Source of the DNA: Candidatus Iainarchaeum sp.
GTDB lineage: Archaea; B1Sed10-29; WALL01
Direction of reading: 5' to 3'
DNA length: 64,000 nucleotides
NCBI GenBank assembly: GCA_021162685.1
Contig: JAGGYF010000028.1
Coordinates: 1-64,000, forward strand
Below the pieces are notes generated by a model. The model did no database searches. It saw nothing but the letters and a program-made list of their open reading frames with translations, and was not told the origin of the DNA. Position 1 is the first letter of the stretch. The number at the start of each line of letters is the position of its first letter. Positions 21,395-41,704 of the stretch are shown here, piece after piece. The translations under genes were made by a program, and so were the position numbers.

Positions 21395-21411
21395 AAGCTG
21401 GGGTCGCATAG
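21395..21411 (+). repeat. 17-bp duplication of the tRNA-Ser 5' end
   Basis: AAGCTGGGGTCGCATAG at 21395-21411 is identical to 21471-21487 (2 upstream bases plus tRNA positions 1-15). Confidence 0.95.
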
Positions 21412-21463
21412 GCCCAAATTACATATGGGCGTTCGTAGTGGGATACAAGATCCCACTATTAGA
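21412..21463 (+). repeat. structured tRNA-associated repeat, copy A
   Basis: GCCCA-AATTACATA-TGGGC GTTCG TAGTGGGAT-ACAAG-ATCCCACTA TTAGA; homologous to the copies at 41134 and 41249. Confidence 0.92.
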
Positions 21464-21472
21464 AAACCATAA

Positions 21473-21556
21473 GCTGGGGTCGCATAGCCTGGTAGTGCGC
21501 AGGCCTGGAGAGCCTGTTTCCTTCGGGATGCGTGGGTTCAAATCCCACCCCCAGCG
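21473..21556 (+). tRNA. tRNA-Ser(GGA)
   Basis: Acceptor GCTGGGG/CCCCAGC, anticodon arm CAGGC-CTGGAGA-GCCTG, long variable arm, T arm GTGGG-TTCAAAT-CCCAC, G73; CCA not encoded. Confidence 0.97.
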
Positions 21557-21650
21557 CTCTACTACTGGAGCTAATAGCGCCAAGAGAACCAAAAGCAATA
21601 TAAACAATTATTGTATAAACTTATAACGTATAATTTTATAAGGTGATTGA

Positions 21651-40237: not shown

Positions 40238-41010
40238 TGAGGGTAAAGGTTCTTGAAAGCAAGCCAAATAAAGTAAAGCTTCATATAAGCGGCACAAAAC
40301 CCGTTATTGTTAACTCTTTAAGAAGGGCAATCCTGGGTCTAGTACCCGCGATGGCAATAACAGAGGTGAACATATACGAAAATACATCCGTGATGTTTGA
40401 TGAATATATTGCGCACAGGCTTGCAATGATTCCACTAACAACAGATTTGAAAACATATAAGATGCCAGAGGAATGCGAGGGAGGTGGATATAATACATGT
40501 TCTGTTGATTTGAGTTTAGATGTAAGCGGACCAAAGATGGTTTATTCCTCTGATCTCAAAACAACTGACCCAAAAGTAAAACCTGTTAGTGGAAAGATAC
40601 CTATTATTGAACTTCAACCAGGGCAACGCCTGAGGCTTGAGGCAAAAGCAACATTGGGTTATCCAGAAGAGCATGTGAGATGGCAGGTTGGAAACGCAGC
40701 ATATAGATATGTATTTAACGTGAAGATAGGAAAGGAATGTGAGAACTGTCTTGAATGTGTTAAAGCGTGTCCAAAAAAGGTATTAAAGAAAGGAAGTAAG
40801 AAAATAGAGGTCGCAAATCCGCTAGAATGCAATGGATGTGGCATATGCAAAGAGGTATGCAAAAAGGGCGCCATTGAAATAATACCAGACACAACATCAT
40901 TCATATTCACCATAGAGACAAACGGGCAGATGAGTGCGAGGGACGCACTTAACACAGCAGTAAGTGCACTCCAGAAAAAGGTCTCAGAGATGAGAGAGAT
41001 AATGAAATAA
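40237..41010 (+). CDS. rpoD: RNA polymerase subunit D (Rpo3) with ferredoxin-like insert
   Basis: NSLRR, NTSV.FDE.IAHRL..IPL, CxxCxxCxxxCP. Confidence 0.96.
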   Translation: MRVKVLESKPNKVKLHISGTKPVIVNSLRRAILGLVPAMAITEVNIYENTSVMFDEYIAHRLAMIPLTTDLKTYKMPEECEGGGYNTCSVDLSLDVSGPKMVYSSDLKTTDPKVKPVSGKIPIIELQPGQRLRLEAKATLGYPEEHVRWQVGNAAYRYVFNVKIGKECENCLECVKACPKKVLKKGSKKIEVANPLECNGCGICKEVCKKGAIEIIPDTTSFIFTIETNGQMSARDALNTAVSALQKKVSEMREIMK

Positions 41011-41012
41011 AT

Positions 41013-41131
41013 GCGGGGGTGCCGGAGCCTCCCTCGTGCCTTCATTGGCACGAAGGCTCAAGTGGTCAAACGGGCAGGATTGAGGGTCCTGTGGCTTAGT
41101 GCCTGCGCGAGTTCGAAGCTCGTCCCCCGCA
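41013..41131 (+). tRNA. tRNA-Leu(GAG) with 33-nt D-loop intron (41030-41062)
   Basis: Acceptor GCGGGGG/CCCCCGC, anticodon arm CAGGA-TTGAGGG-TCCTG, long variable arm. Removing 41030-41062 restores the canonical D-loop GAGCCTGGTCAAA; a BHB-like fold is possible. Confidence 0.92.
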
Positions 41132-41360
41132 CTGACCAAATTACATATGGTCGTTCGTGGTGGGATACAAGATCCCACTTACAGCAGGAGGGGGTGTGGA
41201 ATCCGAGGGTTTCCAGGGGGAACCTGGGTTCCCCATAAAGGACGCTCTGACCAAATTACATATGGTCGTTCGTGGTGTGGCATAAAGCCACACTATTAGA
41301 GGGGGATGTGCCCCCATAAAGGACGCTCTTCGAAGCTCGTCCCCCGCACTGACCAAATTA
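41112..41360 (+). repeat. two tandem structured repeat units bracketed by a 32-bp direct repeat containing the tRNA-Leu 3' end
   Basis: TTCGAAGCTCGTCCCCCGCACTGACCAAATTA at 41112-41143 and 41329-41360; units at 41134-41248 and 41249-41329. Confidence 0.93.
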
Positions 41361-41407
41361 AACAACCTAGAAAATCCGAGTCCGAAAGGGCGTAAGGAGG
41401 TATTGGG

Positions 41408-41704
41408 ATGATATCAAAAAAGATTGCGAAGACAAAACTTGGAAAGGAAATAAAGAAACGCATGGAAAAGAGCAGAAAGAACAAGGCAGAAGTAAACATA
41501 GGTAAGATTGCGAAGTATACAAAAAAAGGCGATAAGGTTGTGGTCGTTGGAAAGGTCCTGGGCATGGGTAGTATAAGTCATGCTGTAACTGTTGCTGCTC
41601 TAGCCTTTTCAAAATCTGCAAAAGAAAAGATAGAGAAGGCAGGGGGAAAAGCGATCCGTATACATGAACTTGAAGAAACAAAGGGAGTTAAATTGATGGC
41701 ATGA
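41408..41704 (+). CDS. rpl18e: ribosomal protein eL18 (short)
   Basis: AEVNIGKI, VVV.GKVLG.G, VTVAAL.FS.SA.EKI; conserved position. Confidence 0.92.
   Translation: MISKKIAKTKLGKEIKKRMEKSRKNKAEVNIGKIAKYTKKGDKVVVVGKVLGMGSISHAVTVAALAFSKSAKEKIEKAGGKAIRIHELEETKGVKLMA

Follow-up and report, generated by a model that had tools for sequence, protein, structure and literature searches.

What are the two hairpin-rich units that lie in tandem directly behind a tRNA-Leu gene of a DPANN archaeon, and how did they come to stand between that gene and a second copy of its own 3' end? The question is posed by a 64,000-nt stretch of Candidatus Iainarchaeum sp. (positions 1 to 64,000 of contig JAGGYF010000028.1, assembly GCA_021162685.1; hereafter the window), in which an initial annotation, made from the letters alone, had pointed out the units B and C, a further copy A at tRNA-Ser, and an undescribed structured element anchored to tRNA genes. 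Our analysis resolves B and C into modules, M1 and M2s, of a mosaic and nested set of hairpin modules of about 50-60 nt that occupies some 30 sites in this genome (1.11 Mb, 45 contigs, scored 98% complete; C-numbers denote its contigs). These modules are inserted DNA, each bracketed by a local target duplication of 11-49 nt, and B and C are probably composites of selfish, non-coding, non-autonomous mini-insertion modules moved in trans by an activity for which no enzyme could be named.

The array behind tRNA-Leu(GAG)

The array lies within the conserved archaeal gene order rpoD - tRNA-Leu - rpl18e, and all features of the window described here are on the + strand. Unit B (41134-41248) starts 2 nt 3' of the tRNA gene and joins an M1 module (41134..41187; nhmmer E 5.5e-16) to an M2s module (41186..41248). 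Its M1, which is supported by hairpin scan, fold and pair counts, opens with hairpin 1 (41134-41138 / 41148-41152), next to which stand the GTTCG linker and then hairpin 2 (41160-41166 / 41172-41178, loop ACAAG). Its M2s has a stem that encloses the conserved loop TCCGAGGGT, then a hairpin of a G-run and a C-run, and ends in ATAAAGGACGCTCT; our covariance model R1 matches it at 41186-41247 with 60.2 bits (E 1.6e-12), and an alignment and pair counts support it as well. Unit C (41249-41329) contains an M1 (41249..41300; nhmmer E 5.2e-18) with its own hairpin 1 (41249-41253 / 41263-41267) and hairpin 2 (41275-41281 / 41287-41293, loop ATAAA; hairpin scan and fold), followed by a short M2s remnant (41301..41329) that reads GGGGG-ATGTG-CCCCC and then ATAAAGGACGCTCT, without the first M2s hairpin. 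The two units share an internal repeat of 52 nt at 83% identity and one of 18 nt at 100%, the latter comprising the end of the remnant and the end of unit B.

An exact 32-nt direct repeat marks both ends of this array. The left copy (41112..41143) runs from the T-loop (T54) through the 3' end of the tRNA, the dinucleotide CT and the first 10 nt of M1, and stops in the loop of the first M1 hairpin. The right copy (41329..41360; 100% identity) consists of a dead tRNA-Leu 3' fragment and a truncated M1 head, with the unique spacer to rpl18e next to it; its sequence is peculiar to this tRNA-Leu and is not that of the other Leu genes. On our reading, the duplication made by the latest event at the locus would begin in the T-loop and end in the loop of the first M1 hairpin. 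Both units and the repeat are present as the initial annotation had reported them. In the four same-family genomes in which we inspected the orthologous rpoD-tRNA-Leu-rpl18e region, the spacer (50-120 nt) is empty in every case and contains neither units nor a tRNA fragment, and the gene is free of an intron.

The tRNA-Leu(GAG) gene itself (41013..41131) is defined by its sequence, by ARAGORN and by these four orthologues, whose uninterrupted copies confirm its identity. It is split into exon 1 (41013-41027) and exon 2 (41063-41131) by a D-loop intron of about 35 nt (41028-41062, borders +/-2 nt), for which our strict-motif scanner found no bulge-helix-bulge motif. Because of this intron, the gene as it stands is called neither by ARAGORN nor by Rfam; once the intron stretch (33-37 nt) is taken out, ARAGORN calls a tRNA-Leu(gag) starting at 41013.

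Could the tandem array simply be an assembly artefact of a repeat family, a doubt that the initial annotation had raised itself? Many copies of the family stand at contig ends, and the step from the tRNA into unit B rather than into unit C passes through a 31-mer common to both, where the contigs of three runs do not settle the order. Against this stands the finding that Logan contigs from these three runs, assembled contigs in each case and from runs that may be the assembly's own source samples, reproduce with 0 differences the stretches 40864-41161 (tRNA into the first unit), 41133-41276 (B into C) and 41248-41358 (C into the second repeat copy), and that similar arrays are found at C12, C17 and C24 and in relatives. 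We consider an artefactual array very improbable.

Copy A provides a simpler case. It is a solo M1 (21412..21469; nhmmer E 7.6e-18, fold) in the leader of tRNA-Ser(GGA) (21473-21557; ARAGORN, Rfam) and is flanked on either side by a copy of AAGCTGGGGTCGCATAG. The displaced copy of the tRNA-Ser 5' end (21395..21411) covers positions -2 to 15, ends in the D-loop and is identical in 17 of 17 positions.

A mosaic family of hairpin modules

A whole-genome search with the unit region yielded 31 matches, which we sorted into modules. M1 is defined by hairpin 1, the GTTCG linker, a 7-bp hairpin 2 with a 5-nt loop, and a ragged tail; it has 19 matches at E <= 1e-7 on 13 contigs, those on C19 and C41 representing one locus. 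M2s, in which the conserved loop TCC(C/G)AGGGT tops a first stem, a hairpin of a G-run and a C-run comes next and GACGCT forms the end, is matched eight times by R1, and M2L (eight matches) is an M2s that carries an additional 58-nt hairpin insert. M3 (six matches) and M4 (five) open with a hairpin plus T-run directly 3' of tRNAs. M5, M7 and M8 were also distinguished by reading and profiling; M8 is a sister of M1 that shares its architecture but differs in its stems. At C17 and C20, tRNA-Leu is followed by two or three stacked 3' fragments.

The initial annotation had treated the unit as one element. This view has to be revised, as M1 and M2s are independent modules that also occur singly and in either order; M1 is mostly co-oriented with neighbouring tRNA or 5S genes, and M2s is found in both orientations relative to tRNAs. 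The modules insert in either orientation, into each other and in tandem.

Modules are bracketed by copies of their targets

We aligned the flanks of 21 events for direct repeats and found a local direct repeat of 11-49 nt in 19 of them; the two remaining rows, the tRNA-Leu array of the window and C24, gave module-to-module matches, and the 32-nt repeat of the window comes from a separate repeat analysis. The flanking repeats are local target sequence, specific to each locus, with no common attachment sequence among them. The distance between the repeat copies is 48-62 nt in 13 of the 21, although the inserts represent five module sequences that are unrelated. Among the 40 tRNA genes, 11 have a copy of their own 5' or 3' end within 700 nt, and a twelfth has such a fragment on an adjoining contig; the upstream 5' copies end at positions 13-17, in the D-loop, and the downstream 3' copies start at positions 54-64, in the T-loop or T-stem.

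The targets reach well beyond tRNA genes, so that the tRNA anchoring proposed at the outset does not hold as such. One module lies at a gene start, where a 41-nt repeat spans the ribosome-binding site and the ATG; another lies at a gene stop, with a 49-nt repeat of which 42 positions are identical, and the target at C32 has a 45-nt repeat. Directly 3' of a 5S rRNA gene, five modules (M4, M4, M2L, a truncated M1 and M2L) form an array (C14:13600-14215) that ends in a copied start fragment of a pilin gene. A pilin-like gene is itself a target (C3:4768-5195, + strand): its signal peptide harbours an in-frame array of three modules and about 250 nt between two copies of an AISPIVSV-coding stretch, and the 142-aa reading frame is open throughout. 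Prepilin cleavage would take off the extra residues. Modules also nest within modules, as is exemplified by an M3 that sits in the loop of the second hairpin of an M1 with a 14-nt repeat. In every gene-end case a complete gene is kept beside a dead fragment: what the insertion interrupted is restored by the duplication, and such insertions are therefore tolerated.

Integration classically leaves a tRNA gene, an insert and a partial tRNA copy in succession, and the arrays might accordingly be scars of serially integrated and since decayed plasmids or viruses that target tRNAs with tyrosine integrases, the modules being their surviving ends and the repeats attL and attR. The stacked 3' fragments behind tRNA-Leu at C17 and C20 would suit such a history, as would the presence of an integrase in two of four relatives and an insert of 1.8 kb described in Caldiarchaeum, which bears a recombinase and separates a tRNA 5' fragment from its gene (PMC3293823). 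However, no single element-borne attachment site explains target-specific repeats at more than ten different tRNAs and at protein genes, and inserts with defined ends and a length of 48-62 nt in 13 of 21 events are not random remnants. In addition, neither this genome nor one element-rich relative has an integrase match, and our motif patterns found 0 stretches each in viral contigs. We regard integration scars as an improbable source of the arrays.

The borders of the repeats deserve attention in their own right. They fall in hairpin loops, those of both M1 hairpins as well as the D-loop and T-loop, and several junctions show microhomologies of 1-5 nt. In a relative, a 35-nt repeat covers a gene end and the entire first hairpin of an older copy, the same geometry as that of the 32-nt repeat in the window. 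These features, together with the variable repeat length and the fact that no enzyme was found, would be expected if no dedicated element existed and host replication or break repair at hairpins, by template switching or synthesis-dependent end joining, copied nearby hairpin DNA into breaks. Yet unrelated sites carry the same short modules with the same ends (8 of 9 solo M2s copies have the GACGCTG end), and the modules are kept across genera and families; random templated insertion gives neither recurring modules nor the narrow insert size of 48-62 nt. An origin through host repair alone has, in our view, only a slim chance of being correct.

Conservation of structure

The hairpins proposed in the initial annotation were all predicted. 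As RNA, unit B folds with -45.1 kcal/mol (z -2.64), unit C with -32.9 (z -3.92) and copy A with -22.0 (z -5.09), and for none of the three does any of 200 shuffles reach an equally good fold. The + strand gives the more stable fold (B, -45.1 versus -34.7 on the - strand; C, -32.9 versus -27.0). Across the stems of 11 M1 and three M8 copies, 96.2% of 182 cells are paired, and the covariation noted at the outset is borne out, with 6 of 13 M1/M8 pairs altered on both sides; none of 500 shuffles attains as much, and slid controls yield 28-43%. In the first stem of M2s, counted in seven copies from this genome and seven from relatives, 56 of 56 cells are paired and three of four pairs are altered on both sides. 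Because the copies are kin, few independent changes stand behind the M1/M8 and M2s pair counts.

Conserved pairing of this kind could also mean that the modules are functional structured RNAs, such as leaders or trailers, terminators, or small RNAs made in one transcript with stable RNA genes, and that the duplications are side effects of recombination. The compensatory changes in M1/M8 and M2s fit this explanation, as do the better fold of the + strand, the maintenance of M2s in two families, the position of most copies next to tRNA or 5S genes with M1 mostly co-oriented, and the hairpin plus T-run with which M3 and M4 begin directly 3' of tRNAs. On the other hand, M2s stands in both orientations relative to tRNAs, copies occur at the ends of protein genes and in frame within a coding region, and the mismatches in the M1/M8 stems include A.C besides G.U, so that neither strand is clearly the folded one. 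The orthologous tRNA-Leu, moreover, works without units in four of four relatives. Clean duplications around single modules at unrelated targets are predicted by insertion and not by RNA function.

Searches for known RNA families point in the same direction. With the gathering cut-off, Rfam finds two tRNAs only in the whole window, and an E-value scan (E <= 10) of 40900-41500 returns just one spurious match (E 1.9). At meaningful scores, four other arrays contain tRNAs and 5S alone, and nine loci of relatives contain tRNAs alone. A scan of the window for strict bulge-helix-bulge motifs, with a scanner that recovers the known introns of this genome, found none that would excise a unit or a unit plus repeat; the seven motifs present compare with a mean of 3.4 in shuffles (maximum 9), and the single motif at tRNA-Ser with 0.74. 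The suggestion of a ribozyme or processing signal thus finds no support, and we consider functional RNAs unlikely as an explanation for the family.

Two further ideas were discarded. The M1 tail as a promoter was dropped because its TATA-like stretch lies merely 7-17 nt from the tRNA start, and a hairpin plus U-run end, as expected for a terminated RNA template, suits modules of relatives, not M1.

Occurrence in relatives

The family reaches beyond this genome, although its homologues surfaced only through motif and covariance-model searches; a BLAST-level DNA search of 40 relatives with M1+M2L returned one 18-nt chance match. Among 31 genomes of the class, R1 finds M2s in eight: six of six in this family (this genome included), two of four in a second family and 0 of 21 in the others. 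The best match, 74.1 bits, lies in this other family (L177, G007:C28, 1501-1564) and scores above all copies in the genome of the window, which suggests strong constraint or transfer between lineages. M2s copies in relatives are flanked by repeats of 22 nt (a tRNA 5' end), 16 nt and about 57 nt (imperfect), and in two metagenome contigs the D-loops of two tRNA-Pro genes are occupied by M2s, with duplications of 20 and 22 nt. Four of the seven metagenome stretches that match the M2s pattern were set aside as chance, the rest of the module being missing. Behind a tRNA of one relative (L182, G004:C21, ~1480-1670) stand two identical 94-nt tandem units, each consisting of M2s and a copy of the 3' end of that tRNA, the same tandem pattern as that of B and C.

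Two relatives from another genus have copies of their own ends at 14 of 74 tRNAs, two extra rows of this survey being matches to the T-loop of a neighbouring tRNA and kept apart from the 14. The inserts hold M2s homologues and a module of M1 architecture, with hairpin 1, a linker containing ...CGTT..., and a variable hairpin 2 whose loop is often ACAAG. Of the 47 distinct copies of this M1-like module, 24 have exact flanking repeats of 10-39 nt, and the simplest inserts measure 59-81 nt. Its head motif occurs in 38 stretches of genome contigs, 36 of which fall in three archaeal records, two of them labelled Candidatus Iainarchaeum and Nanobdellati, and in 0 stretches of viral contigs; the other two, each a lone match in a bacterial record, were rejected. 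Metagenome, viral and genome contigs, a set that possibly leaves the genome of the window outside, contained 0 stretches with the exact M1 pattern.

At three loci of relatives (L133, L142 and L149), M1-like modules recur every 1-2.8 kb among genes for small membrane or secreted proteins and adjoin promoter-like AAAAGGCTTTTATA motifs, a layout that resembles a cassette array. In the element-rich 8-kb stretch at L149, the open reading frames were judged by eye to encode small membrane or repeat proteins.

A possible route of insertion, and what weighs against it

The data reported here lend themselves to a regular sequence of events. Two breaks or template switches would occur 11-49 nt apart, one of them often in the single-stranded loop of a hairpin, be it the D-loop or T-loop of a tRNA or the loop of an older module. 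A defined short donor would then be copied in, with fill-in after it, and selection would retain an event only if its duplication extended beyond the boundary of the gene. The conserved hairpins may be features needed by the trans-acting activity or by an intermediate. The variable duplication, and the fixed head and ragged tail of M1, recall target-primed insertion, which remains an analogy because no reverse transcriptase was found. More tentatively, and with doubts of our own, we envisage an undescribed DPANN insertion mechanism, namely a polar, target-primed or loop-directed copy-in of hairpin DNA or RNA of about 55 nt that dispenses with known transposases, integrases and reverse transcriptases, and that is also a source of tRNA introns and displaced tRNA fragments.

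Among the possibilities left by the initial annotation, a non-autonomous mobile unit mobilised in trans is the best fit to the evidence, but a number of points weigh against it. One is that no movement was seen. The lone variant is a contig from run X5, of another study, that joins 41131 to 41247 without unit B and diverges after 41310; with a depth of 2.85 and a path across the shared 31-mer it may be a graph artefact, and it is for these reasons just a hint of array variation. Some loci share more than a module: one pilin-start fragment is joined to M2 at both C3 and C14, and M1 stands behind three paralogous genes at C13, C24 and C31, shared flanks by which part of the spread must be attributed to segmental copying or recombination and not to fresh insertion. 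Several long repeats are imperfect (42/49, 21/23), and to our knowledge no known transposase gives duplications so long and so variable. Compensatory changes, and a higher M2s score in another family than at home, would suit a selected RNA as well.

The searches for a mobilising enzyme add to these points. RVT_1 (PF00078), the sole reverse transcriptase model used, has 0 matches in this genome and in 0 of 4 relatives. Cas1 (PF01867) is equally without a match in this genome and in the four relatives, and the HUH transposase model Y1_Tnp (PF01797) has 0 matches in this genome. From the TnpB zinc-ribbon family there are sub-threshold pieces alone, one of them with stops. Phage_integrase (PF00589) has 0 matches here, with a control that was positive in 14 of 14 reference genomes and serine recombinases not searched for; it is present in two of four relatives and absent from one element-rich relative. 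That a XerA-type Phage_integrase is unmatched stands beside a completeness score of 98% for this genome. The initial annotation had looked to a covariance search, target duplications and a linked integrase, HUH or reverse transcriptase gene for a decision: M2s in 8 of 31 genomes and the duplications were found, and such a gene was not found in this genome.

Nor did wider searches reveal a partner. None of six inverted-repeat pairs joins the outer ends of a unit, and neither a multi-copy transposase-like gene nor a parent insertion sequence was found, the repeats of more than 200 nt encoding only TPR, PKD, pilin and similar proteins. DUF123 (GIY-YIG-like) was considered as an enzyme and dropped, as it is present here and in 0 of 5 same-family relatives that bear the elements. 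A CRISPR array at a contig start (C26:1-490) has a 37-nt repeat in seven copies and six spacers of 36-38 nt, none of which matches the modules. Literature searches, with supplementary files outside their range, found no description of such elements, and PMC5905446 deals with ordinary 1.5-kb transposons. An undescribed family of structured non-coding elements without a coding partner nearby, as initially proposed, is what remains.

Comparison with known elements

The class fails a defining feature of each family with which we compared it: MITEs (miniature inverted-repeat transposable elements), short interspersed nuclear elements (SINEs), repetitive extragenic palindromes (REP) with their associated transposases (RAYT), integrase-borne islands, casposons and, as regards the units of the window, bulge-helix-bulge introns. 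SINEs and other target-primed retroposons resemble it in many respects, as they are likewise short and non-autonomous without coding content, lack terminal inverted repeats, are linked to tRNA genes, and have one defined end (here the head of M1) and one ragged end (its tail); their target duplications, too, are variable and often long, as are those found here (11-49 nt; 10-39 nt in relatives). The modules are, however, only about 55 nt long, have no poly-A tail, internal promoter or tRNA-derived body, M2s has both ends defined, and no reverse transcriptase accompanies them here or in the four relatives searched with the RVT_1 model. Bacterial and archaeal MITEs are likewise small, multi-copy, structured and gene-less, and break assemblies, but in our case no inverted repeat pairs the unit ends, no parent insertion sequence was found, and the duplications span 11-49 nt as opposed to a fixed 2-10 nt.

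Palindromic units in mosaic intergenic arrays are typical of REP sequences and bacterial interspersed mosaic elements (BIMEs) with RAYT, and of the intergenic mosaic elements of Neisseria. The present arrays share with these the mosaic of palindromes and the maintenance of hairpins by compensatory change; they differ from REP and BIME arrays by the missing Y1 HUH transposase, clear long target duplications, and insertion into gene ends and coding sequence. Fujishima and co-workers have reportedly found transposing tRNA introns in Thermoproteales, with near-identical short sequences at different positions of different tRNA genes. Here, too, one module copy lies in an anticodon-loop intron, yet most copies lie outside the tRNA body and have target duplications, protein genes are also affected, and no splicing motif is present at the borders of the units in the window. 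Casposons, which carry Cas1 and span kilobases, are bounded by terminal inverted repeats, and the duplication that they produce has a set length of about 14-15 bp. They resemble our modules in that they target the 3' ends of tRNA and other genes, with a duplication that takes in the end of the gene, and differ in that the duplication length is variable here and no Cas1 is found in this genome or in four relatives.

The nearest published case is a kilobase-sized and recombinase-bearing insert (PMC3293823). At the tRNA-Thr locus of Caldiarchaeum, an intact tRNA and a displaced fragment bracket the insert of a tRNA-targeting integrative element, and insertion is linked to intron gain (PMC3293823). 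Such elements are kilobase-sized and have a recombinase and their own attachment site, whereas the inserts described here are about 55 nt long and gene-less, with a repeat made from the target.

Should the modules prove mobile, no smaller structured insertion elements would be known from archaea, and the hallmark of the modules, long and variable target duplications combined with a lack of inverted repeats, would be matched by no described class of prokaryotic elements. They offer a testable route to two puzzles: how archaeal tRNA genes gain introns at odd positions and shed fragments, and how essential single-copy genes can receive neutral insertions, for which the rebuilding of the gene end by the duplication would account. 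In practical terms, they explain tRNA genes missed by finders, annotated dead tRNA fragments, and breaks of DPANN assemblies at these sites. As no enzyme could be named, the elements also suggest that very small genomes harbour a nucleic-acid activity that has gone unrecognised.

A module inside a tRNA gene

The units of the window lie outside the tRNA body; one M8 copy lies inside. At C30:9704-9912 (- strand; locus L171), ARAGORN miscalls a tRNA-Glu(ctc) with a 119-nt intron. The gene is a tRNA-Arg(TCT) of 75-76 nt once two introns are removed, a D-loop intron of about 63 nt and an anticodon-loop intron of about 70 nt. The D-loop intron has a strict bulge-helix-bulge motif. The anticodon-loop intron contains M8, has an internal 11-nt repeat, and matches the copy in the leader of a tRNA-Ala almost throughout. 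The tRNA-Arg(TCT) of one relative has no intron. A module family that is dispersed through the genome can consequently become a tRNA intron.

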